A stretch of DNA of 60,019 bases, filler included, from Theionarchaea archaeon (GTDB taxonomy: Archaea; Methanobacteriota_B; Thermococci; Methanofastidiosales; SZ-28-30), in NCBI GenBank assembly GCA_018992565.1. It is 4 parts of 4 records of this genome, joined end to end, with 100 filler letters (N's around TTAATTAATTAA, not from the genome) between each part and the next. Parts side by side here need not be neighbours in the genome. Positions count along the whole stretch, not along the records: positions 55,188 to 60,019 come from JACVGW010000129.1; 3 more parts are not named here. One strand, given 5' to 3'. Positions 2,867-60,019 of this stretch are shown piece after piece. Within the stretch, counting starts at the first letter, position 1. The number at the start of each line of letters is the position of its first letter. Position numbers and translations under genes: made by a program. The notes under the pieces were generated by a model, which did no database searches, was not told where the DNA came from, and was given only the letters and a program-made list of their open reading frames with translations.

Positions 2867-3014
2867 GTGAGTAGTCTGTGATTCTGTTTTAAAAAGGTTT
2901 CTGTCACCCCGGAAATCCTGCAGGTTACGGACGATCCAGCCTCTAACAGGCTAACTGATGCAGGCAGCCATTCGAGCTGGGGACTCAACAAAAAAGGAGA
3001 AGATATATGAGGTT

Positions 3015-3510
3015 TCATCTTTCTCGAGGGGGTATGAGGTCTTCAAGCTCCCTCAGAATTTCCGTTTCCACATCAATAAGTATGTTCTCCTTGACTCTTC
3101 CCACAACTGATGCTGGTGCCTGCAGGACATCCTCTTTAAACACTGTCTTTCTACCAGATTCACTGGATCTCCTAACAGCCTCTGTAGCAATCCGGTGAGC
3201 AAAATTCTCTACGATATCTCTCANNNNNNNNNNNNNNNNNNNNNNNNNNNNNNNNNNNNNNNNNNNNNNNNNNNNNNNNNNNNNNNNNNNNNNNNNNNNN
3301 NNNNNNNNNNNNNNNNNNNNNNNGGACATCCTCTTTAAACACTGTCTTTCTACCAGATTCACTGGATCTCCTAACAGCCTCTGTAGCAATCCGGTGAGCA
3401 AAATTCTCTACGATATCTCTCAATTCAAGAGCGGCATCTTTTGACACTCTCTCAGCACCCGCTTTTCGCAAGATTCTATCCACTGGTGCAAGGGCAATTG
3501 GCATATTCAT
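3015..3510 (-). CDS. Archaeal histone with a C-terminal extension, interrupted by a scaffold gap
   Basis: IALAPVDRILRKAGAERVSKDA and GRKTVFKEDV histone-fold motifs; merging the 99-bp duplicate flanking the gap gives one ORF of about 98 aa. Confidence 0.85.
3224..3323. other. 100-N scaffold gap flanked by an identical 99-bp sequence (3125-3223 = 3324-3422)
   Basis: Direct comparison of the two flanks. Confidence 0.95.
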
Positions 3511-5876: not shown

Positions 5877-6320
5877 ATGAAAAAAGGAATATTTGCAGCC
5901 TTTGTTGCTTTGGCGATCTTTACATCATTTGTAGGCGCCGGTGAAGTCCCACGGGTAGCCATCATCCATCCCAAGCAAGTCACAATATTCGTTCATCCTG
6001 AACAGTGCAAAGAGGTGGAGCTGCCGTCTATTCCTAATGGAGGCGTAATTTACCTTCAGGTGTATACATCAATTAACGCTAATGAATTATACATCGAATT
6101 TAATGGTATCCCTGTCCCCGGATATGGTCCGAAGTATGGACCTGATCGATTCGAGAGAATCCCTCTGTCAATCAGTGATGATGAACAGGGGGAGGTCGCC
6201 TACATTGGTGTCTCTGCAAGCAACGAATTTGGGACCAATACAGTGTATGCTGCCTTCATTCCAGTGCCCTATAATCCTGGAAGCCTGGGACCGGCAGTTG
6301 GATGCTCAACAATGCACTGA
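5877..6320 (+). CDS. Secreted hypothetical protein, paralog 2
   Basis: MKKGIFAAFVALAIFTSFVGA signal peptide, GAGGTG RBS, shared ELPSIPNxGVIYLQVYT and ELYIEFNG blocks, poly-T after the stop. Confidence 0.8.
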   Translation: MKKGIFAAFVALAIFTSFVGAGEVPRVAIIHPKQVTIFVHPEQCKEVELPSIPNGGVIYLQVYTSINANELYIEFNGIPVPGYGPKYGPDRFERIPLSISDDEQGEVAYIGVSASNEFGTNTVYAAFIPVPYNPGSLGPAVGCSTMH

Positions 6321-6365: not shown

Positions 6366-7070
6366 TTATTCCAGCAGGGATTCAGAAGGATAGACCTCGA
6401 TGCCCCTCTTTGTTATCTTCATGGGGCGAGCTTCTTCGTCAAATCCAGTCCCTCTCATTTTCTCTACCAGGATGGAGCGCTTCCTCTTCCCATTAAGGAA
6501 AATCGTCTGCAGTCTGACAGTCCCCCTTGCCAGGAAGCTTTCCACTTCCACAGCATCGCCCAGGGACTCGCTGATCAAAAGCGATGTGCATCTGTTCTCG
6601 GAAAGATAGTTCATGAGAGACAATAGATCCACTCGTATGTCCCTCTCTCTTTCACAGAGCTCCTTCAGGGCAGTAATGGAGTCAATAACGATATTCCCTA
6701 CCTTATGCACTGTCAATTCAGTGGTTATCAAGTTATTGAGGTTGGCCACATTGAACCGAACACTCTCCAGTAATCCATCTGTGGGAAGCACCCACACACC
6801 TGTCCCTCCTTCAGGAGACACATCCAGGATCCTGATTCGAGAAATGTCCCATCCAAAAGCACTCATATTGTCTCTTATTTCTGCTGCTGGCTCAGATAAT
6901 GAAATATACAGCCCCTTCACACCATCCTCAATTCCCTGAAGCAGGAAATGCATGCCTAAGATAGTCTTCCCTGAACCAGGGGGACCAACCAAGACATATG
7001 GTCTCCCCGCTATCAGTCCTCCGTGGAGCATCTTGTCCAACCCAGGTACGCCCGTCTTCACTCTTCTCAT
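6366..7070 (-). CDS. KaiC-like / RecA-superfamily single-domain ATPase
   Basis: TGVPGLDKMLHGG, Walker A GPPGSGKT, Walker B IVIDS, VEKMRGT. Confidence 0.9.
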   Translation of the reverse strand: MRRVKTGVPGLDKMLHGGLIAGRPYVLVGPPGSGKTILGMHFLLQGIEDGVKGLYISLSEPAAEIRDNMSAFGWDISRIRILDVSPEGGTGVWVLPTDGLLESVRFNVANLNNLITTELTVHKVGNIVIDSITALKELCERERDIRVDLLSLMNYLSENRCTSLLISESLGDAVEVESFLARGTVRLQTIFLNGKRKRSILVEKMRGTGFDEEARPMKITKRGIEVYPSESLLE

Positions 7071-7805
7071 TTAACCACCTTGAATTCTGTACACAACATC
7101 CGCTACTTTGTCTCTAAAGCTGTTTGCCAGGCTCTCGTCAATGAACAGCGTGACAATACGCTGCACTTCAGAACATGCATCTATCAAATCCTCTTTGCTG
7201 GTGAAATTTTTCTGCAGGCGCTTCTTCACCATGATGTAGTCATCTCCCAGCAACTTCCTGGCAAACCCTTCAATTTGAGCTGCAGCTTCAGCCGGGCTGA
7301 GCGAAGATTGTCCTTCAGCACTCTCTTTCTGTTTCTCAAAAGTAATGGTGATTTTGGGAACTAATCCCCTGTTCCTGGCCAGCTTCATCAAGGTAAGCCT
7401 GGCAATCAACTCCACCTGCTTGGTGGCCTTGGACCAGTCTTCTGCTGACATGAATATGGAAGTGGTTCCTTTCCATCCATATCCTTTTTCCCGCATATCG
7501 CACTGAATACTCTGGACAACAAATGTACCCAGGTTCTGGGCTTCTTTCTGCAGCACTTCACTAATGACTCTTTCAGTTCCGGAAAGACCAGTGGGAGAAG
7601 CTGCCAGATCAGCCAAAATACTATCAATGTTCTTGTTAATCCTTTCAATTTCTCCAGGAGAAAAGGATTCCTGCACATCTTTTCTGATCAAATATCCAAT
7701 GCCTTCCCGTTCAAGGAGTTCCTCAAATTCCTCGTCTTTCGGTAGGGAGATCCCCAGTTTTTCAAGTAGTTCCTGGCGTTCTTCCTTCTGCAGCTCCTCA
7801 CTCAT
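7071..7805 (-). CDS. Hypothetical protein co-transcribed with the KaiC-like ATPase
   Basis: 244-aa ORF with GAGGAG RBS and an upstream TTTATA; its stop abuts the ATPase start. Confidence 0.75.
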   Translation of the reverse strand: MSEELQKEERQELLEKLGISLPKDEEFEELLEREGIGYLIRKDVQESFSPGEIERINKNIDSILADLAASPTGLSGTERVISEVLQKEAQNLGTFVVQSIQCDMREKGYGWKGTTSIFMSAEDWSKATKQVELIARLTLMKLARNRGLVPKITITFEKQKESAEGQSSLSPAEAAAQIEGFARKLLGDDYIMVKKRLQKNFTSKEDLIDACSEVQRIVTLFIDESLANSFRDKVADVVYRIQGG

Positions 7806-7993
7806 AGTCTCCTCTTAGAGCTGTCAAATATAAAGGTTTGTTGTACTGCAGAATTCCCAACGCCCATGTAGGTTCCTCTTTTTTGACTGAGCCTCCATGA
7901 AGAAAGAAAAGGCTCTCAGTTAAAAGAAAAGTTGTGCAAAGGTGTTGCATAAATAATCGAAACCTTTATAACTCTCCTGCAGGCATTGCTCCC

Positions 7994-8377
7994 ATGGATG
8001 AACGTCAACGTATTCGTCAAGAAAAACTGGAAAAGCTTCAGAATGAGGCGAGTATGCCTCGAACCCCCATCAAGGTTACAGATAGCGACTTTGAGGACAC
8101 TCTCCGGAAGTATGATGTTGTGGTGGTGGACCTGTGGGCAAGCTGGTGCATGCCCTGCAAGATGATCGAGCCTTCTGTGGAAGCGCTGGCTGAGAAAATG
8201 GCGGGAAAAGTGGTATTCGGGAAGTTGAACGTGGACGAGAACCCAAGGACTGCTGCTCGCTACCAGGTCATGAGTATCCCCACACTGCTGGTGTTCAAGA
8301 ACGGTTCACCGGTGAAGCGTATTGTGGGAGCTGTTCCACAGCAGCATCTGGAGCAGCAGATTGCGGAGGCACTGTAA
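7994..8377 (+). CDS. trxA: Thioredoxin
   Basis: WASWCMPC active site and MSIPTLLVFKNG; start reset to ATG 7994, downstream of TTTATAA. Confidence 0.93.
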   Translation: MDERQRIRQEKLEKLQNEASMPRTPIKVTDSDFEDTLRKYDVVVVDLWASWCMPCKMIEPSVEALAEKMAGKVVFGKLNVDENPRTAARYQVMSIPTLLVFKNGSPVKRIVGAVPQQHLEQQIAEAL

Positions 8378-8736
8378 TGCGGTTTCTCATGAACGAGAAC
8401 CTGTGCAGTAAGCTGCAGATTGACAAGATGGACGAAGACCGGCTATTATCCTGTCTTCTTTCACTGAATGATCTGGAGAGCACGGTCCTCTTCTACCTTT
8501 TTTCACATCCCGGGGTCACTGCAAGAGACATTGCCCAGGCAGTGGAGAGACATCGGAGTACGGTCCAGAAAGCACTGGACCAGTTGATGAGCCAGGGACT
8601 GGCCGTAAGGCGAGCTGATAGTCTAAAGAGAGGATATATTTACAGATATTCTGCCATATCAAGAAAGAAGTTGAAAGAGGCCATAATAGAAGAAGCGAAA
8701 GAGTGGTGCAAGATGATTGAAGAAAAGCTGGCCTGA
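8377..8736 (+). CDS. HTH transcriptional regulator (TrmB-like winged helix)
   Basis: TARDIAQAVERHRSTVQKALDQLMSQGL helix-turn-helix and RGYIYRY wing; TAATG overlap with the thioredoxin stop. Confidence 0.8.
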   Translation: MRFLMNENLCSKLQIDKMDEDRLLSCLLSLNDLESTVLFYLFSHPGVTARDIAQAVERHRSTVQKALDQLMSQGLAVRRADSLKRGYIYRYSAISRKKLKEAIIEEAKEWCKMIEEKLA

Positions 8737-8801
8737 ATGTTGTGGCTGCAAATTGACCGGGAGTCAGGCTAGGTTTATAACTTTGTAATCGAATATGGAC
8801 T

Positions 8802-9917
8802 ATGCGCACCATGACCAGACGTCAATTCTTCCAGGAAAGTGCTGGACTACTTCTCAGTGCATCATTACTCAGGAGAATTGGAGGATATACGCCGGCATTG
8901 AACACCTCTTCTGGACCACAACTGGTGATTGCGCGGAATGGAGTCCCAGGAGAACTCCTGAATGCTGCGCTTGAAGAGGCTGGAGGTATCGGAAGTGTGG
9001 TCAAAAAGGGACAGAAAGTCGTGATCAAGGTTAATATGTCATTTAACCAGCCACCAGTGCGGGCAGCCACCACCAACCCAGAATTGGTGGAAAGGCTCGT
9101 AGAAATGTGCAGGGAGGCGGGGGCCTCAGAAGTTGTGGTGATTGATCACACCCTGGACAATGGTCAGATGTGCATGGATACGTCAGAGATAGAGAATGCT
9201 GTAACCCGGGCTGGAGGGGATATCAAAGTCATAAATTCCCACGGAGACTACAAGACAGTGGATATTCCCAGGGGGAAGAACTTGGAAAGAACGGAGTTGT
9301 CAAGAGAGGTTCTGGATGCAGATGTCTTCATCAATGTTCCCATAGCGAAGGTGCACGGTTCTGCTGTTATATCGGTGTCCATGAAGAATTTGATGGGTAT
9401 TGTATGGAATAGGGGGGAATTTCACAGCAAGGGGTTGAACCAGTGCATAGCTGATTTGAGCAGTCTGGTGAAGCCCGATTTGATTATACTGGATGCGTAC
9501 CGAATCTTGATGAGTAATGGGCCTCGAGGCCCCGGAAAGGTGAAAGAGGCAGGAGAGGTTATAGTAGGAGTGGATCCTGTGGCCATTGATGCATATGCCT
9601 GTCAGCTTCTGGAGCAGAATATTGAAGATGTACGATATATTCGGGCAGGATATGATTTGGGACTGGGAGAAATGGATCTGGATAAGGTTCAGATGGTATA
9701 TGTGGATGTCCAGAAAACGCAGGAAGGAAGCCAGGTTGAACCAGATGAAGGTGCGCCTTCAGATTTTGAACCTGTGTCTTCTCCGGAAGAACCTCTCTTC
9801 CATGAAGAAGAAGCTGACGAAGAGAATGAAGTGGGAATTCCTGCCATCCTGCTGGTACCGGCCATTGTCGTGTCTATCCTCATTGGGCTGAGAATGCGCA
9901 GGCATAGTAAGGAGTAA
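8802..9917 (+). CDS. DUF362-domain protein with Tat signal and C-terminal membrane anchor
   Basis: TRRQFF twin-arginine motif; VVIKVN, TTNPELV, INVPIAKVH, SMKNLMG and DPVAID motifs; acidic linker, TM helix and basic tail. Confidence 0.8.
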   Translation: MRTMTRRQFFQESAGLLLSASLLRRIGGYTPALNTSSGPQLVIARNGVPGELLNAALEEAGGIGSVVKKGQKVVIKVNMSFNQPPVRAATTNPELVERLVEMCREAGASEVVVIDHTLDNGQMCMDTSEIENAVTRAGGDIKVINSHGDYKTVDIPRGKNLERTELSREVLDADVFINVPIAKVHGSAVISVSMKNLMGIVWNRGEFHSKGLNQCIADLSSLVKPDLIILDAYRILMSNGPRGPGKVKEAGEVIVGVDPVAIDAYACQLLEQNIEDVRYIRAGYDLGLGEMDLDKVQMVYVDVQKTQEGSQVEPDEGAPSDFEPVSSPEEPLFHEEEADEENEVGIPAILLVPAIVVSILIGLRMRRHSKE

Positions 9918-9979
9918 CCTGGTGCTTGGATATGGACTATGAACCCAGTACTGCAACCTGTGGCTGTAATACGAATCTC

Positions 9980-10465
9980 TCATCGACTGGCAAGCCGTTT
10001 CCTCAGCATGGGTAGCAATCCACCTTGTCGAATCAATGTCTCTTCTGCTGCAGTCAATGTGAAAGTGTGATCTTCTCCTGTGGCTGTGTCATATACAGTT
10101 TTCCTGTCTACATCAATCGTCAGGGTATCATTCTTCTTGATCCCTGAAGTATCTATCTGTACAGACAGTAATGCATTGTTGAACGCATTTCTTTTGAAGA
10201 TAGGAGCAAAAGACATGGCCAGAACTGCTTTAACATCTGCAAAGAGAAGGGCAAACACAGCTTCCTCTCTGGATGATCCGCAGCCGAAGTTGTGGCCAGC
10301 CACAATGATCTTCTCTGGTACATCCTTGAACCCTGGTATAGTATGATAGAAGGCATAGTCAGCGAAGGTTCTAGGATCCCTTGATTTCTGCAGCGCAAAT
10401 GTGGGAATAATGAGGTCAGTGTCAACATCGTCTCCTACAATCAGAGCAATCCCATCAATTTTCAT
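9980..10465 (-). CDS. 3-isopropylmalate dehydratase / homoaconitase family small subunit (LeuD/HacB-like)
   Basis: GDDVDTDLIIP, AGHNFGCGSSRE, SFAPIFKRNAFN. Confidence 0.88.
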   Translation of the reverse strand: MKIDGIALIVGDDVDTDLIIPTFALQKSRDPRTFADYAFYHTIPGFKDVPEKIIVAGHNFGCGSSREEAVFALLFADVKAVLAMSFAPIFKRNAFNNALLSVQIDTSGIKKNDTLTIDVDRKTVYDTATGEDHTFTLTAAEETLIRQGGLLPMLRKRLASR

Positions 10466-25006: not shown

Positions 25007-25106
25007 NNNNNNNNNNNNNNNNNNNNNNNNNNNNNNNNNNNNNNNNNNNNTTAATTAATTAANNNNNNNNNNNNNNNNNNNNNNNNNNNNNNNNNNNNNN
25101 NNNNNN
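25007..25106. other. Artificial contig linker
   Basis: N-run + TTAATTAATTAA (stops in all six frames) + N-run. Confidence 0.97.
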
Positions 25107-42049: not shown

Positions 42050-42149
42050 NNNNNNNNNNNNNNNNNNNNNNNNNNNNNNNNNNNNNNNNNNNNNNNNNNN
42101 NNNNNNNNNNNNNNNNNNNNNNNNNNNNNNNNNNNNNNNNNNNNNNNNN
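42050..42149. other. 100-N scaffold gap
   Basis: Run of N. Confidence 0.97.
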
Positions 42150-50018: not shown

Positions 50019-50118
50019 NNNNNNNNNNNNNNNNNNNNNNNNNNNNNNNNNNNNNNNNNNNNTTAATTAATTAANNNNNNNNNNNNNNNNNNNNNNNNNN
50101 NNNNNNNNNNNNNNNNNN
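50019..50118. other. Artificial contig linker
   Basis: N-run + TTAATTAATTAA + N-run. Confidence 0.97.
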
Positions 50119-55087: not shown

Positions 55088-55187
55088 NNNNNNNNNNNNN
55101 NNNNNNNNNNNNNNNNNNNNNNNNNNNNNNNTTAATTAATTAANNNNNNNNNNNNNNNNNNNNNNNNNNNNNNNNNNNNNNNNNNNN
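55088..55187. other. Artificial contig linker
   Basis: N-run + TTAATTAATTAA + N-run. Confidence 0.97.
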
Positions 55188-55708
55188 TCTGCTCCTTTGA
55201 CTAGTTCTTCCAGAGAACTGCAGTATCCTGAATCTCCAGTGACGGCCACTGTTTTATTCTTGAAGGTGATTCTGTACCCTACTGCCGGCATGGGGGAGAG
55301 AACTCCTTGGGCTGTTGAACCTGCATGAACAACGAAAAAGGGTTGTACAACAGCGTTTGAGAGGGTGTAGAGGTGCCTATCCTCAACTATGGTTATTGTC
55401 ATGGGATAGGGGAGGGTATCCTGATAGCAAGTCTTGAATCCTTTAATGACGGCATCTACTTCACACGCTCCAGGGTGGAAAATGTTCAGAGGGGTTTTGT
55501 GGCCTATCATTCGCAGATATCCTAAGAGGGAATGTAACCCACCCATGTGGTCGTAATGGCCATGGGTGATCAAGACGGTATCAAGGGTCTGGAAATCGTA
55601 GGATGCTGTAAGAAGGTCACGAAGGGTTCCATCCCCCACATCGACGAGTATATTGTCCAGGAGAATTTGGGTGGCTATGCCAGCCTGTGAGAATAATACG
55701 GGATCCAT
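55188..55708 (-). CDS. Metallo-beta-lactamase-fold hydrolase (RNase Z-like), 3'-truncated
   Basis: LVDVGDG, THGHYDH (HxHxDH), GYRI and TGDS motifs. Confidence 0.85.
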
Positions 55709-56087
55709 AGTACGGTAGTGACTGTGATATTTTAAGGTTGAGGGTAGGATAGGACATTGAATTCATTTCATGAAATGATTTTTGTTGCTTGGAGAACCAT
55801 CCTGAAGAAGACTCTGTCTTGGAACATCCATAGCCCTAGTGCTTGGAGTTGAACATAGATTGAAGCATCGGGTTCATCTCATGGTCTGATTCAAATAAAT
55901 ATTGTGTATCCACGAGCATGCTATCATACCGATCCATTTCGCATTCTCACTTGTTACGTTTCTGCAATAGCGAATTATCTTTCTACAGATATCCTTTCTC
56001 CCGTTCCTCTTCAGTGAGGTACACTACGAACCTTTTGTACCCTCTGTATTGCTATTCAACTTACCATATACAGAATGCGATATACTG

Positions 56088-56138
56088 GCGAAAACTATAA
56101 AAGGCTGCTCTGCATGAGAAACAGAAACAAGGAGGTGA
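56088..56138 (+). promoter_or_regulatory. BRE/TATA-like promoter and RBS of the precursor gene
   Basis: GCGAAAAC-TATAAAA at 56088-56103 and GGAGGTGA at 56131-56138. Confidence 0.6.
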
Positions 56139-56142
56139 TAGG

Positions 56143-56382
56143 ATGAGCATGAGAGCATTGAATCCCGATAGAGAGAAAGTTGAAGAAAGCTTCACACGAG
56201 CATTCTGTGCAACTCTTCCATCAGAGAAGGAGGTCTCAGAGACATCAAAAGCTTTCTGCGCTACGCTCCCCGGGGAACCTGATGCGAGGGCAATTACCAA
56301 GTCCTTCTGTGCGACTCTCCCTTCTGAGAAAGATATTCGTGCTCGAGCACGCGAAGCCCTTAAATCCATGCTGAAAGAATGA
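56143..56382 (+). CDS. Putative multi-core RiPP precursor peptide with three FCATLP(S/G)E repeats
   Basis: Cys at residues 22, 39 and 56; repeats conserved in protein but with synonymous codon differences; strong RBS; directly upstream of radical SAM genes. Confidence 0.85.
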   Translation: MSMRALNPDREKVEESFTRAFCATLPSEKEVSETSKAFCATLPGEPDARAITKSFCATLPSEKDIRARAREALKSMLKE

Positions 56383-56443
56383 AAGTCCATGAACGTTGAG
56401 GATGGTTATCCCTCTTTTTCTCTTTTATTTATCAGGTGACCCC

Positions 56444-57784
56444 ATGTATGTGAGCAAATACAATATAATCCTGGATGTAGACAACCACACAGAAAAAATA
56501 CTCATTAATCCCCTTTCACAATCCATAGATGTAGTGGATGAAGACGACGAGGTGTGTGCTTTCTTGAAAGGTGCAGGGGCTCTTGAGAATGTGAAAGGTT
56601 CAGATCGAGACTACCTTCTTCAGAGAGGATACCTTTTCAATGAGCCTGAAGAAGAAGAGAACCTTATTCGCGACGTGATCAGAAAGGATGATCGTGAAGA
56701 ATACCCGTGTGACTTCCTATTGTATCCCACCTTTCACTGTAACTTCAGGTGCACATACTGCTTCCAGAGTGAGCTTCCCAAATACTCTTTTATCTCAACT
56801 GACTATGTGAATAAGGCTTTTGAGGCTATAGAATCCATAAGCAGAGACGCAAGAGCTGAATCTCCCCTCCTCTACTTATTCGGGGGAGAACCTCTCCTCA
56901 AGGGGAAGAAGGCTAAAGAAACTATAACATATATACTGCAGCAGGCCTGCAATAGGGGATACAGAACTGCAGTAATCACCAATGGCTCCAATGTACAGTT
57001 GTATTCCTCTTTACTGAGAAAATATGAAGTAGAGTTCATTCAAATCACGCTGGACGGACCCCAGCACATTCATGATAACCGACGTCTCTATGCTAATGGT
57101 AAAGGAACGTTCAACAATATTAAAAAGGGTATAGAAAGCCTTCTTGGTTCAGATGTAAGAATATTAATCAGAATGAACTTAGATTCGCAAAATATTGATT
57201 ATATACCAGAATTTGCTGACTTCGTGTATGAATCTGGTTGGGACAAAGACAATGTAACAGTATTCGTGGGCCCGTATCGAGACCTCCTGTGCAGGAGTTA
57301 CGAGTATCAATTGCCAGAACACGTGATGCTTGAGAGGATGTTCACCTTTTACCAGGAGAATCCCGCAACTAGAATCATTAAATTGCTGGCATGGCCTGGT
57401 GCAGATTACATCCTGCATTTCCTGTACACGAGAGAGCTTCCCCCGCCGCGGGTGAGTTACTGCATTTCCAGTTATGGAAGGTTTGGGTTTGACGCAGAAG
57501 GATATATGTACGCATGCGGTAATGCTGCAGGGAACAAGGACTATGCAATAGGGAGGTACTACCCAGAGGTCACACTTGATGAAGAGAGGGTACGAATGTG
57601 GAGGAAGCGGAGGGTTGAAACCATTCCTTCTTGCAGAGAATGTGAACTCGCTTTCCTGTGTGGAGGGGGGTGCACGCTCCAGTCTCTCCTGAAGTTCGAT
57701 GGGGAAAAGCCCTTCTGTCCTGAAATTCTTCAAAACTTGAAGGTGGCTGTAACCCATTATTTTGATGAGATTGTAGGTGATTAG
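56444..57784 (+). CDS. Radical SAM/SPASM peptide maturase
   Basis: CNFRCTYC, FGGEPLL, TNG, QITLDG and SPASM YC...YAC...CRECELAFLCGGGC...FC; start reset to ATG 56444 after AGGTGA. Confidence 0.92.
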   Translation: MYVSKYNIILDVDNHTEKILINPLSQSIDVVDEDDEVCAFLKGAGALENVKGSDRDYLLQRGYLFNEPEEEENLIRDVIRKDDREEYPCDFLLYPTFHCNFRCTYCFQSELPKYSFISTDYVNKAFEAIESISRDARAESPLLYLFGGEPLLKGKKAKETITYILQQACNRGYRTAVITNGSNVQLYSSLLRKYEVEFIQITLDGPQHIHDNRRLYANGKGTFNNIKKGIESLLGSDVRILIRMNLDSQNIDYIPEFADFVYESGWDKDNVTVFVGPYRDLLCRSYEYQLPEHVMLERMFTFYQENPATRIIKLLAWPGADYILHFLYTRELPPPRVSYCISSYGRFGFDAEGYMYACGNAAGNKDYAIGRYYPEVTLDEERVRMWRKRRVETIPSCRECELAFLCGGGCTLQSLLKFDGEKPFCPEILQNLKVAVTHYFDEIVGD

Positions 57785-58921
57785 ATGTATTTCAGTAGAT
57801 TCAATTACGTCTCGGACTATGAGAAGGATGGCCAGAGACTCTTGATGAATTTTTTGAGCCAGTCGTGTGATATTGTTGATGAAGAATCAGCCTCACACTT
57901 TTCCCAGGAGAAGGATGTTTCTACAGAGGAAAGGGAGTATGCGCTCCAGAGAGGATATATTTTCCAGGATGAAGCTGAGGAGTTGATACTGCTCCAGAAG
58001 TTGTATCACTATGAGCTTCAGAATAAGAGAGTCCTCTCTGTGGTTCTCTTGGATACCTTTGATGGGAAGGGATTGAGAGAGGTTCTGAAAGACATGAAGA
58101 ATCGAAATAGTCAATGCGTTCTCTTCACTGAGCATCCATTGGATGATTCATTGCCGTTCGATCACTTTGACAACTTGTTGACACTGCACATTGTCACAAC
58201 TCATGAGAACCTGCGTGCATTTGAACCCTTTTTCATGAAAAACATGGTTTCAAAGGTCTCATTGTTGCTACCCCTATCGGGTTCTATACTCTTTGCTGAA
58301 GAAGTTGAATCACGTGTCGATACTCTGGTGGAATCTGGAACTCTTGTTGAAATCATTCCCAGAGTCCAGGAGAGTGAAGTTGAACTCCTGAGACCCCTGA
58401 TGAAATACTTCATTTACAAGGGATGGCCCTTTCTGGAGAATTTCACCTGCAGCCTGGAACCCAATCCCAATGAAGGATGCATCTTTGGGCGCTGGTATGG
58501 TACCGAGAATCTAGTTCGTCGTATCTTTAGGGAGTATGCTGCATACCCTCAGACAGAATTCTGCAGTATAAAGAACTGGGTGGGAGTGAATCCCATTCAT
58601 TCACTGATCTGGACAGGAAAACCGTCTCCTCCTTCCTTTAATTTCTGTGAAGCATCCAAAGGGCTGACAGCTCTAAAGAGATGGTGTGAAGTTCCCTGCC
58701 CCTACCTGGATTCAGGTAAATTCGAGGCAGAAAATCCATCTGACTGCCAGGTCTGTACTTTTGCTCTCACATGCGGAGGAGGATGCAGGTTGAAGTCAAC
58801 CCAGAAAGCGGAACGGTGTCCCCCAGTAAAAGAACTGATTGAAGCATCTCTCGAATACTATTTTGACGAGTTCCTGCAGCGAATAACCTTTGGTGAGCAG
58901 TATCATGGAGGGATCCAATGA
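57785..58921 (+). CDS. Degenerate paralog of the upstream radical SAM/SPASM protein, lacking CxxxCxxC
   Basis: Shared N-terminus (LSQS.D.VDE, LQRGY.F) and C-terminus (CxxCxxAxxCGGGC...CP...YFDE); no SAM-cluster motif or GGEP. Confidence 0.8.
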   Translation: MYFSRFNYVSDYEKDGQRLLMNFLSQSCDIVDEESASHFSQEKDVSTEEREYALQRGYIFQDEAEELILLQKLYHYELQNKRVLSVVLLDTFDGKGLREVLKDMKNRNSQCVLFTEHPLDDSLPFDHFDNLLTLHIVTTHENLRAFEPFFMKNMVSKVSLLLPLSGSILFAEEVESRVDTLVESGTLVEIIPRVQESEVELLRPLMKYFIYKGWPFLENFTCSLEPNPNEGCIFGRWYGTENLVRRIFREYAAYPQTEFCSIKNWVGVNPIHSLIWTGKPSPPSFNFCEASKGLTALKRWCEVPCPYLDSGKFEAENPSDCQVCTFALTCGGGCRLKSTQKAERCPPVKELIEASLEYYFDEFLQRITFGEQYHGGIQ

Positions 58922-60019
58922 AAATCTCTTTAGTAGTCCCGAATGTGGCAAAACACATCCACGGTGAAACTTTTGAGCCACTTGGTGTCTTGTACATTGC
59001 TTCAGGGCTTTGCACCGAACATGAGGTGCAGATTGTGGACAGTTTCAACAGAAAGCTGAATCTAGAAGAAACAGTGAAAGAAGTACTCTCATTTGAACCT
59101 GATGTCGTGGGAATCAGTATTACCATGAGTCCCACAGCTCTTTTTGGAAAAAAAGTAGCACAAGAAGTGAAGCAGGCATTACATATTCCTGTAATCGTGG
59201 GTGGTACCCATGCTACCTTTGCAGCAGAAGAATTAGCTCTCAATCCGAGTATTGATATTGTGGTTCTGCATGAGGGAGAAGTCACTTTTCAGGAGATTGT
59301 GAACTGCCTGCAGGGGGATATTGCTCTGTCCACTATTAGGGGAATAGCATTTCAGCATGATGGGAACACACTAAAGACACAGATACGGGAACCTCTGAAA
59401 GATCTGGATAGCATTCCTTTCCCTGCACGGCATTTACTCCCGGATCACCGCATATACAGCAGAAACCACATACTGTCAAGCCGGGGCTGTGTCTTCAAGT
59501 GCATTTACTGCGCCTCTTCAGCCATGAATCAGTACCGGTGGAGATCCCGAAGTCCTGAAAATGTTCTGGAGGAAATGGAAATCATGGCTTCAGAGTACTC
59601 TTCTACCTTCTACTTTGCGGATGACAATTTCCCTGTGAACCAGGAGAGGACTCTGACACTCTGCAGAGAGATTGTGGAAACGAACTTGTCGGTAACGTGG
59701 GCGTGTCTATCCCGGATTGAATTCATGGATGATAAGGACTTATTACAGGCCATGGCCCGCGCTGGATGCAGAGAAATCTTTATTGGAGCAGAATCAGGAA
59801 GTGACCCGGTACTCAAGAAATTGAAGAGAACCTATACTGCTGAAGATATAAAGAGAGTGGTGAAGTTGTGTAATGACACAGGTATTTCAACGACAGTCTC
59901 TTTTATTGTTGGGAATCCCTTTGAAACTCTGGAAGACGTCAGAAGAACCTTCGAAGTGGCAGCAGAACTTGACACTCCCAATGTGGCTTTCCACATTTTT
60001 ACACCCTATATTGGAACTC
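58918..60019 (+). CDS. Cobalamin-dependent radical SAM enzyme (class B methyltransferase-like), runs off the window
   Basis: Hand translation: PLGVLYIAS, PDVVGIS, VGGTHAT, HEGE, SRGCVFKCIYC, ADDNF, IGAESGS, FIVGNPFET; ATGA overlap with the previous gene; absent from the ORF track. Confidence 0.93.
   Translation, partial: MKISLVVPNVAKHIHGETFEPLGVLYIASGLCTEHEVQIVDSFNRKLNLEETVKEVLSFEPDVVGISITMSPTALFGKKVAQEVKQALHIPVIVGGTHATFAAEELALNPSIDIVVLHEGEVTFQEIVNCLQGDIALSTIRGIAFQHDGNTLKTQIREPLKDLDSIPFPARHLLPDHRIYSRNHILSSRGCVFKCIYCASSAMNQYRWRSRSPENVLEEMEIMASEYSSTFYFADDNFPVNQERTLTLCREIVETNLSVTWACLSRIEFMDDKDLLQAMARAGCREIFIGAESGSDPVLKKLKRTYTAEDIKRVVKLCNDTGISTTVSFIVGNPFETLEDVRRTFEVAAELDTPNVAFHIFTPYIGT

Follow-up and report, generated by a model that had tools for sequence, protein, structure and literature searches.

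A radical SAM paralog without the SAM-cluster site is retained in a four-gene FCATLP-peptide cassette of a Theionarchaea archaeon

Why would a genome keep an intact gene for a radical S-adenosylmethionine (SAM) protein from which the SAM-cleaving site has disappeared, directly next to a gene for a paralog that still possesses it? This question is raised by a 378-aa reading frame in a 60,019-nucleotide stretch of DNA (the window) from the metagenome-assembled genome (MAG) of a Theionarchaea archaeon (NCBI GenBank assembly GCA_018992565.1). The gene, termed pseudo-rSAM here (P0001 in our protein set), lies on the last piece of the window, positions 55188 to 60019, which is one whole 4,832-base contig (JACVGW010000129.1; G000:C132). 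Four plus-strand genes follow each other in series on this contig: a precursor peptide gene with FCATLP repeats, a catalytic radical SAM/SPASM maturase, pseudo-rSAM, and a B12-binding radical SAM gene (B12-rSAM). A first-pass annotation had described the third of these as a retained, catalytically dead pseudoenzyme, and this description is borne out by intact orthologs of 28-100% identity, purifying selection, a fixed cassette position and invariant SPASM cysteines, which together argue against a pseudogene. As to its role, the sequence evidence leads us to propose, tentatively and at somewhat less than an even chance, that pseudo-rSAM is a non-catalytic accessory subunit, and we lean towards a heteromer with the paralogous maturase on the multi-repeat precursor.

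Pseudo-rSAM and the maturase can be aligned almost end to end by BLASTP (E 4e-20, 20% identity over 447 columns), and all sequence pairs that had originally been put forward for their kinship (MYFSRFN/MYVSKYN, REYALQRGYIF/RDYLLQRGYLF, CQVCTFALTCGGGC/CRECELAFLCGGGC and YYFDE/HYFDE) fall within this alignment. Also correct is the earlier statement that the 378-aa frame is intact and equipped with its own AGGTGA ribosome binding site (RBS). Relatives of pseudo-rSAM were collected by a word-indexed search (E <= 0.001), which returned 30 clusters with 35-100% identity to the query; most of them measure 370-424 aa and cover the full query, another three reach only 224, 243 and 355 aa, and the few that are named derive from Methanofastidiosia or Theionarchaea MAGs. 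The query and 22 of these 30 hits make up alignment A1. Omitted from it were P0004, which is identical, P0006 and P0007, which are near-duplicates, as well as P0013, P0016, P0023, P0027 and P0033; of these last five, three are fragments. An exhaustive search of representatives at 50% identity (E <= 0.001) yielded 51 proteins, of which ten scored under 1e-30, and contributed seven new members (P0034-P0040) with identities down to approximately 29%, three of which are GC-rich; their addition to A1 gave alignment A2 with 30 sequences. Those matches weaker than the break at 1e-30 that were read or included in the tree are ordinary radical SAM (rSAM)/SPASM enzymes of 437-503 aa. When the pseudo-rSAM family (A2) was compared with the maturase family (alignment A3, 35 members) by hhalign, a probability of 100 was obtained with an E value of 1.3e-51 over 390 columns, and radical SAM descent and fold are indicated by this match together with the partial (beta/alpha)6 TIM barrel of the structural model described below.

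What has been lost is the site that defines a radical SAM enzyme in the maturase. As first noted for the single protein, there is neither a CX3CX2C nor a GGEP motif: the former is found in none of the 30 family members, the seven divergent ones included, and the maturase sequence LFGGEPLL corresponds to VLFTEHPL in pseudo-rSAM. In the hhalign alignment, a gap of about 21 residues in pseudo-rSAM is located exactly opposite TFHCNFRCTYCFQSEL of the maturase, which is the CX3CX2C loop. Pfam detects no family in pseudo-rSAM at E <= 1, including Radical_SAM (PF04055). An alternative SAM-binding cysteine motif was looked for across A2 and was not found; the first 200 residues of its members contain between one and five cysteines each, none of which is conserved, and this holds for C28 and C111 of P0001 as well. 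Because the deletion of the CX3CX2C loop removed the SAM-cleaving [4Fe-4S] site, pseudo-rSAM cannot, judging from its sequence, bind the SAM cluster, and most likely it does not cleave SAM to the 5'-deoxyadenosyl radical. The barrel had in addition been called shortened, which is true of its length but not of its strands: pseudo-rSAM is 68 residues shorter than the 446-aa maturase, chiefly due to three deletions in the hhalign alignment (the cluster loop, the loop past strand 4 and the SPASM linker), and the AlphaFold models of both proteins contain six barrel strands. This preserved six-stranded barrel, and the conservation of the glutamate of the GGE motif and of the threonine at the strand-3 position in at least 90% of the archaeal set A1, would be compatible with a cryptic live radical SAM enzyme using unconventional ligands for the SAM cluster. 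However, the cluster-bearing loop is gone, no cysteine is conserved in the region where replacements were sought, Radical_SAM is not matched even at E 1, and residues 81-152, which form the SAM-binding half (strands 1 to 3) in live enzymes, show the lowest column conservation in A2 (0.45) and belong to the part with the highest ratio of nonsynonymous to synonymous substitution rates (omega). Such cryptic activity is thus effectively excluded.

The SPASM cysteines have been kept, as had been proposed from the window's protein. The CX2CX5CX3C pattern is present, and seven cysteines (C232, C288, C305, C324, C330, C334 and C345) occur in all 30 members of A2, while C321 is found in 29 and C222 in 28 of them. 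In TigE, the first three cysteines of CX2CX5CX3C bind auxiliary cluster Aux II and the last one binds Aux I (PMC10878394). Eight conserved cysteines of pseudo-rSAM, the SPASM set together with C232, could by analogy fully ligate two auxiliary [4Fe-4S] clusters. The SPASM profile TIGR04085 scores 16.6 bits on P0001 (E 0.0082) against a cut-off of 27, and matches 20 of the 30 members at E <= 0.01 (best 6e-9). The best NCBIfam match of pseudo-rSAM, CefB (NF038107), is confined to residues 317-366 and scores 27.9 bits, where the cut-off is 600; the nearest cluster in the Protein Atlas is an unnamed bacterial family of 436 aa (score 0.94).

Column conservation is highest in neither the N-terminal domain nor the SPASM domain; it peaks in the block of residues 196-285, which comprises barrel helix 5, strand 6 and the bridge to the SPASM domain (0.71 for residues 196-240, with a second value of 0.67 within the block), and which contains the family motifs KGWPFLENF, PQTEF and LIWxGK, all missing from the maturase. 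This pattern would fit a pseudo-rSAM turned into a different, non-radical Fe-S enzyme, whose new active site would be built from this block and an auxiliary cluster and might, for instance, carry out redox or sulfur chemistry on the FCATLP cysteine; the presence of nine conserved cysteines, where eight would be sufficient for two clusters, could be taken in the same sense. On the other hand, no catalytic motif of a known family is detectable by Pfam or NCBIfam, and the conserved block is equally explicable as a surface for binding another protein or a peptide. We therefore consider a newly acquired enzymatic function improbable.

Loss of a catalytic motif might simply reflect decay of a duplicated maturase gene, and nonsynonymous substitutions (dN) in pseudo-rSAM indeed accumulate approximately 1.5 to 2 times faster than in the maturase. 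This explanation is contradicted by several observations. Most of the 30 clusters are full-length; orthologs are neither absent nor frameshifted in related cassettes, with no stop codon in seven related loci; seven cysteines are invariant; and an alphaproteobacterial MAG shares the protein with the Archaea at 28% identity and with the same neighbouring genes. In Nei-Gojobori comparisons of seven loci, synonymous sites were saturated in most pairs; for the least-diverged and only unsaturated pair (loci L009 and L010), the ratio of nonsynonymous to synonymous substitutions (dN/dS) of pseudo-rSAM was 0.219 with a synonymous divergence (dS) of 0.305, similar to the values of its two neighbours, the maturase at 0.187 and B12-rSAM at 0.172. 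By domain, omega was 0.04-0.12 for the N-terminal domain (residues 1-80), 0.30-0.37 for the first part of the barrel (residues 81-195) and 0.18-0.24 for the SPASM domain and C-terminus (residues 286-378), which makes the N-terminal domain, similar to a RiPP recognition element (RRE; RiPP, a peptide made by the ribosome and modified after its translation), the most constrained part of pseudo-rSAM. These sequence comparisons are firm evidence for purifying selection, and decay of a pseudogene can be dismissed as effectively excluded, its remaining probability being minute.

In a quick maximum likelihood tree of 64 subsampled rows (16 of the 30 pseudo-rSAM family members, 10 of the 26 maturase orthologs that A3 contains, and a further 38 proteins of the rSAM/SPASM type), the pseudo-rSAM family formed one clade (SH-aLRT 100) and the maturases another (99), and the two are not sisters. 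The loss of the catalytic motif thus appears to be a single and old event, since pseudo-rSAM proteins form one clade that is not sister to the maturases. An origin of pseudo-rSAM by recent tandem duplication of the neighbouring maturase was considered and rejected for the same topology.

The AlphaFold model of pseudo-rSAM built on A2 (pLDDT 87.3, pTM 0.87) consists of an N-terminal domain with three strands (residues 7-9, 17-22 and 27-32) and three helices (33-41, 47-56 and 63-79), six strand-helix units of a barrel, and a cysteine-rich C-terminal region followed by a long helix. The RRE of TigE likewise comprises three strands and three helices (PMC10878394). Best matches in the Protein Data Bank according to Foldseek were anSME, CteB, TigE, SuiB and ChlB. 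With VIA-align, 338 residues could be aligned to TigE (Z 17.2, root mean square deviation 5.1, residues 1-367 of the model) and 320 residues to CteB (Z 14.7), and both alignments begin at model residues 1 to 4, so that they include the N-terminal domain. The Pfam RRE models match the N-terminal domain of neither pseudo-rSAM nor the maturase. Compared with the maturase, whose model (pLDDT 92, six barrel strands) aligns to CteB (5wgg) with a Z score of 27.2, pseudo-rSAM has, as far as the models tell, retained the architecture of RRE-like domain, barrel and SPASM domain but has drifted much further. At its C-terminus, the protein carries a tail, EQYxGGIQ (58897-58918, residues 371-378), that is conserved in the archaeal members and modelled with low confidence; E371 and Q378 are conserved in at least 90% of A1. 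In the crystal of TigE, the C-terminal tail occupies the groove of the enzyme's own RRE (PMC10878394), and the tail of pseudo-rSAM might similarly dock into an RRE, either its own or that of a partner.

The gene order around pseudo-rSAM is conserved too. Relatives were found in six metagenome loci, two of which (L011 and L012) encode the same proteins and count as one. The maturase is located directly upstream of pseudo-rSAM in all five metagenome loci that have upstream sequence, and B12-rSAM directly downstream in all six, or seven out of seven if the bacterial locus L015 is included; genes outside the cassette vary among loci. This provides firm sequence-based support for pseudo-rSAM being locked into a four-gene cassette. 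Locus L015, which was found with the GC-rich members, belongs to an Azospirillaceae MAG and contains the same four genes, with a pseudo-rSAM 28% identical to that of the window and overlaps at both of its gene junctions. An FCATLP peptide is encoded upstream in L009, L012 and L014, that is in three of the four scanned loci with upstream sequence; the precursor has three repeats in these loci and in L015, and L012 and L014 contain an additional, shorter precursor gene with two repeats ending in ...FCATLPSDP. The FCATLP motif is identical letter for letter in the archaeal loci and in the Azospirillaceae MAG, whereas the spacers differ. Candidate modifications are a thioether from the cysteine to the threonine, or methylation. 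In L013 no FCATLP peptide was seen within the 236 available upstream bases. These bases (1-236) include a short reading frame in which FWCLAYGF and SWCLI occur; the cassette of L013 is more divergent, with a pseudo-rSAM of 54% identity, and the core motif in this branch may differ.

Across loci, the pairwise identities of maturase, pseudo-rSAM and B12-rSAM co-vary (r 0.77-0.99), which fits inheritance and transfer of the three genes as one unit. The cassette was detected in one of 133 genomes of the window's archaeal class (the window's own) and in one of 401 genomes sampled from the class of the bacterial MAG (that MAG itself); it is thus rare or patchy among species representatives, as counted in MAGs that are subject to incompleteness. 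A search of genome contigs with A1 confirmed no locus, and a search of viral contigs with A2 found none. In L015 the cassette is followed by an apparent transposase fragment (7273-7656), and the genes upstream of it are unrelated. This fragment and the patchy distribution fit horizontal acquisition. No exporter or peptidase was seen with the FCATLP cassette.

Taken together, pseudo-rSAM is best described as a paralog of the RRE-containing rSAM-SPASM maturases that has lost its SAM-cleaving site through deletion of the CX3CX2C loop, and in which purifying selection has retained the RRE-like domain, a trimmed six-stranded barrel with a conserved second half, and a complete SPASM domain. The strong constraint on the RRE-like domain points to peptide binding, while the invariance of the SPASM cysteines suggests that two Fe-S clusters, which may be structural or redox-active, have been retained. 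The three roles suggested in the first-pass annotation, namely heterodimer partner, precursor-binding scaffold and Fe-S electron relay, are all plausible; binding of Fe-S clusters, binding of peptide and contact with a partner protein are properties that we infer. A possible mechanism would be the following. Pseudo-rSAM would assist the machinery that matures the FCATLP peptide, as an accessory subunit that binds peptide and bears Fe-S clusters, and would be produced in fixed proportion to its neighbours by translational coupling on both sides; in the favoured heteromer with the maturase, the dead subunit would hold one part of the multi-repeat precursor while the live maturase modifies another FCATLP unit, and its clusters might possibly join the electron flow.

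Several points weigh against an accessory subunit that pairs with the maturase. An RRE-like and a SPASM domain are already part of the maturase, and there is nothing obvious that a paralog would need to supply. The clades of the two proteins are not sisters, which speaks against a plain tandem duplication of recent date whose products remained a dimer. The proposed Fe-S clusters are deduced from the cysteine pattern only, and the estimate of dN/dS is based on essentially one pair of loci, most others being saturated. No fusion of an rSAM enzyme with a pseudo-rSAM was found among proteins of 663-2000 aa, which is weak evidence, and of the RNA-library contigs assigned to the locus, which fall on the precursor and maturase genes, none covers pseudo-rSAM, an observation that says nothing on whether the gene is silent.

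The first of these points, that a second RRE beside that of the maturase seems unneeded, would be accommodated if pseudo-rSAM served the other enzyme of the cassette, as an adaptor that uses the RRE-like domain and the conserved cavity to capture the precursor, possibly once the maturase is done with it, and then hands it on to B12-rSAM. Full-length orthologs of B12-rSAM (427-429 aa) contain, according to Pfam, B12-binding and Radical_SAM domains only and no recognisable peptide-recognition domain; B12-rSAM follows pseudo-rSAM in all seven related loci with downstream sequence, and its start codon overlaps the stop codon of pseudo-rSAM both in the window and in L015. The strong constraint on the RRE-like domain would also be explained. 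Left unexplained is the invariance of eight cluster-binding cysteines, and the survey text on the Bacteroides precedent discussed below places the pseudo-rSAM gene beside an rSAM/SPASM enzyme and makes no mention of a B12 enzyme (PMC4573289). An adaptor function is, in our view, the main rival to the accessory subunit, with roughly one chance in a few, and on the unlikely side. An accessory subunit and an adaptor could be combined in an obligate heteromeric rSAM machine, in which the dead paralog, with an RRE and two auxiliary Fe-S clusters of its own, pairs with the maturase, bridges to the RRE-less B12-rSAM and thereby allows ordered modification of two or three FCATLP cores; we regard this more elaborate proposal as unlikely as well, if perhaps a little less so.

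A pseudo-rSAM gene beside a real maturase is an already recognised kind of arrangement, and to call it an unusual architecture for a RiPP cluster, as had been done, was an overstatement. NCBIfam curates two families of pseudo-rSAM proteins. One of these is TIGR04150 (pseudo_rSAM_GG, GG-Bacteroidales), whose members are radical SAM-like proteins without the cysteines for the SAM cluster and, like the protein of the window, have a genuine rSAM/SPASM maturase and a precursor encoded beside them. We know of no experimentally determined function of TIGR04150. In Bacteroides, an in silico survey reports pairs of TIGR04148 and TIGR04150 beside TIGR04149 precursors (PMC4573289). The system described here differs by its FCATLP repeats, by the presence of B12-rSAM and by its hosts, which are archaea and an alphaproteobacterium; TIGR04150 (cut-off 250 bits) matches none of the 30 family members at E <= 0.01, and a search of the genome with this model at E <= 10 misses pseudo-rSAM. 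The other family, TIGR04347 (pseudo_SAM_Halo), is a curated archaeal family whose members are by name pseudo-radical-SAM proteins like that of the window. Its model (cut-off 525 bits) hits 99 places in the genome, the maturase among them, none of which is pseudo-rSAM, and matches none of the 30 members. The family of the window is thus uncatalogued and fits neither NCBIfam model. A literature search returned one in silico survey only and no experimental work on any pseudo-rSAM.

With solved maturases, pseudo-rSAM has its three-domain fold (TigE, 8vpo; CteB, 5wgg; SuiB, 5v1t; anSME, 4k39, is without an RRE) and the CX2CX5CX3C SPASM motif in common, and its weaker match to CteB, relative to that of the maturase, was noted above. 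In all four, CX3CX2C ligates a third cluster and SAM is cleaved, whereas pseudo-rSAM is, from its sequence, most likely incapable of both. The precursor of TigE, TigB, with its TIGSVS repeats resembles the FCATLP precursor in having a short repeated core motif (PMC10878394). PqqD with PqqE and StsC with StsB offer parallels to what is proposed here for pseudo-rSAM, in that an rSAM enzyme has its peptide-recognition element on a distinct polypeptide without catalytic activity: PqqD is a chaperone for PqqE (PMC8939145), and StsBC consists of an rSAM and an RRE protein (PMC10288494). Unlike PqqD and StsC, which are small and comprise an RRE only, pseudo-rSAM is a full-size protein that has also kept a barrel and, by prediction, two Fe-S clusters, and the neighbouring maturase has an RRE of its own.

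The features of the locus are compiled in Table 1. The start codon of pseudo-rSAM abuts the TAG stop codon of the maturase, with the AGGTGA motif four bases before the ATG, and its stop codon overlaps the ATG of B12-rSAM (ATGA). For the maturase, the ATG that gives 446 aa is preferred over an upstream TTG at 56396, which is less likely; its orthologs begin with MYVSKYN. Pfam identifies Radical_SAM in the maturase (E 3.2e-15, 57.1 bits), and its best NCBIfam matches (CefB, TIGR04463, Clo7bot and PapB) are all well under cut-off; B12-rSAM is recognised by B12-binding (E 4.2e-22) and Radical_SAM (E 3.6e-26). A 312-nt RNA-library contig is identical to 56153-56464, covering the precursor and the start of the maturase, and a second one maps inside the maturase; being contigs only, for which carry-over of DNA is possible, they constitute weak evidence of expression. 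The window is composed of separate MAG contigs, joined by three 100-base N/TTAATTAATTAA linkers and containing two plain N-run gaps (linkers and gaps at 3224-3323, 25007-25106, 42050-42149, 50019-50118 and 55088-55187). Because of this composition, genes left of 55188 are not neighbours of pseudo-rSAM. The genome as a whole is very rich in radical SAM genes, as reflected by the 99 places matched by TIGR04347, and tandem rSAM/SPASM genes of 450-480 aa are found on several of its contigs (among them C128 at 7751-10207, C13, C30 and C62); apparently all of them encode full-size enzymes, with no extra pseudo copies.

Table 1. Features of the FCATLP cassette in the window, and precursor genes of related loci (in coordinates of the respective locus)
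Feature	Position	Strand	Remarks
Precursor peptide gene, 79 aa	56143..56382	+	three FCATLP(S/G)E repeats; strong RBS aaggaggtga upstream
Catalytic radical SAM/SPASM maturase, 446 aa	56444..57784	+	RRE-like N-terminal domain, CNFRCTYC, GGEP, SPASM domain
AGGTGA RBS of pseudo-rSAM	57775..57780	+	within the final codons of the maturase gene
Pseudo-radical-SAM paralog (pseudo-rSAM, P0001), 378 aa	57785..58921	+	
Pseudo-rSAM, N-terminal RRE-like domain, aa 1-80	57785..58024	+	three strands and three helices in the model
Pseudo-rSAM, site of the lost CX3CX2C loop, aa 90-96 (DTFDGKG)	58052..58072	+	immediately past barrel strand 1
Pseudo-rSAM, best-conserved block, aa 196-285	58370..58639	+	barrel helix 5, strand 6 and bridge to SPASM; consensus YFIYKGWPFLENFTC.LEP..NEGCIFG.WY ... 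PQTEFCS..W.G.N..H.LIW.GK
Pseudo-rSAM, SPASM cysteine region	58646..58819	+	C288, C305, C321-x2-C324-x5-C330-x3-C334, C345
B12-binding radical SAM gene (B12-rSAM)	58918..60018	+	first 367 aa; truncated by the contig end, sequence stops at 60019
Precursor gene, L009	1404-1637		
Precursor genes, L012	~5890-6120, 6460-6590		
Precursor genes, L014	~2575-2810, 3100-3225		
Precursor gene, L015	~2980-3237		

With four genes, a short invariant core motif and orthologs that range from 28 to 100% identity, the cassette is a compact test case for pseudo-rSAM proteins. Its conservation already tells apart a dispensable portion, the barrel half that handles SAM, and the portions retained: the RRE-like domain, the rest of the barrel and the cysteines of the SPASM domain. 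Once shown, the role of the dead subunit would bear on how rSAM enzymes handle precursors with multiple cores and on how B12 enzymes that lack an RRE find their peptides, and it would allow better annotation of genes now labelled 'hypothetical' or, wrongly, 'AslB'. Should the heteromeric machine prove true, it would give the class of pseudo-rSAM proteins a first mechanistic role, within a compact unit of four genes whose core motif stayed the same as it passed between Archaea and Bacteria.

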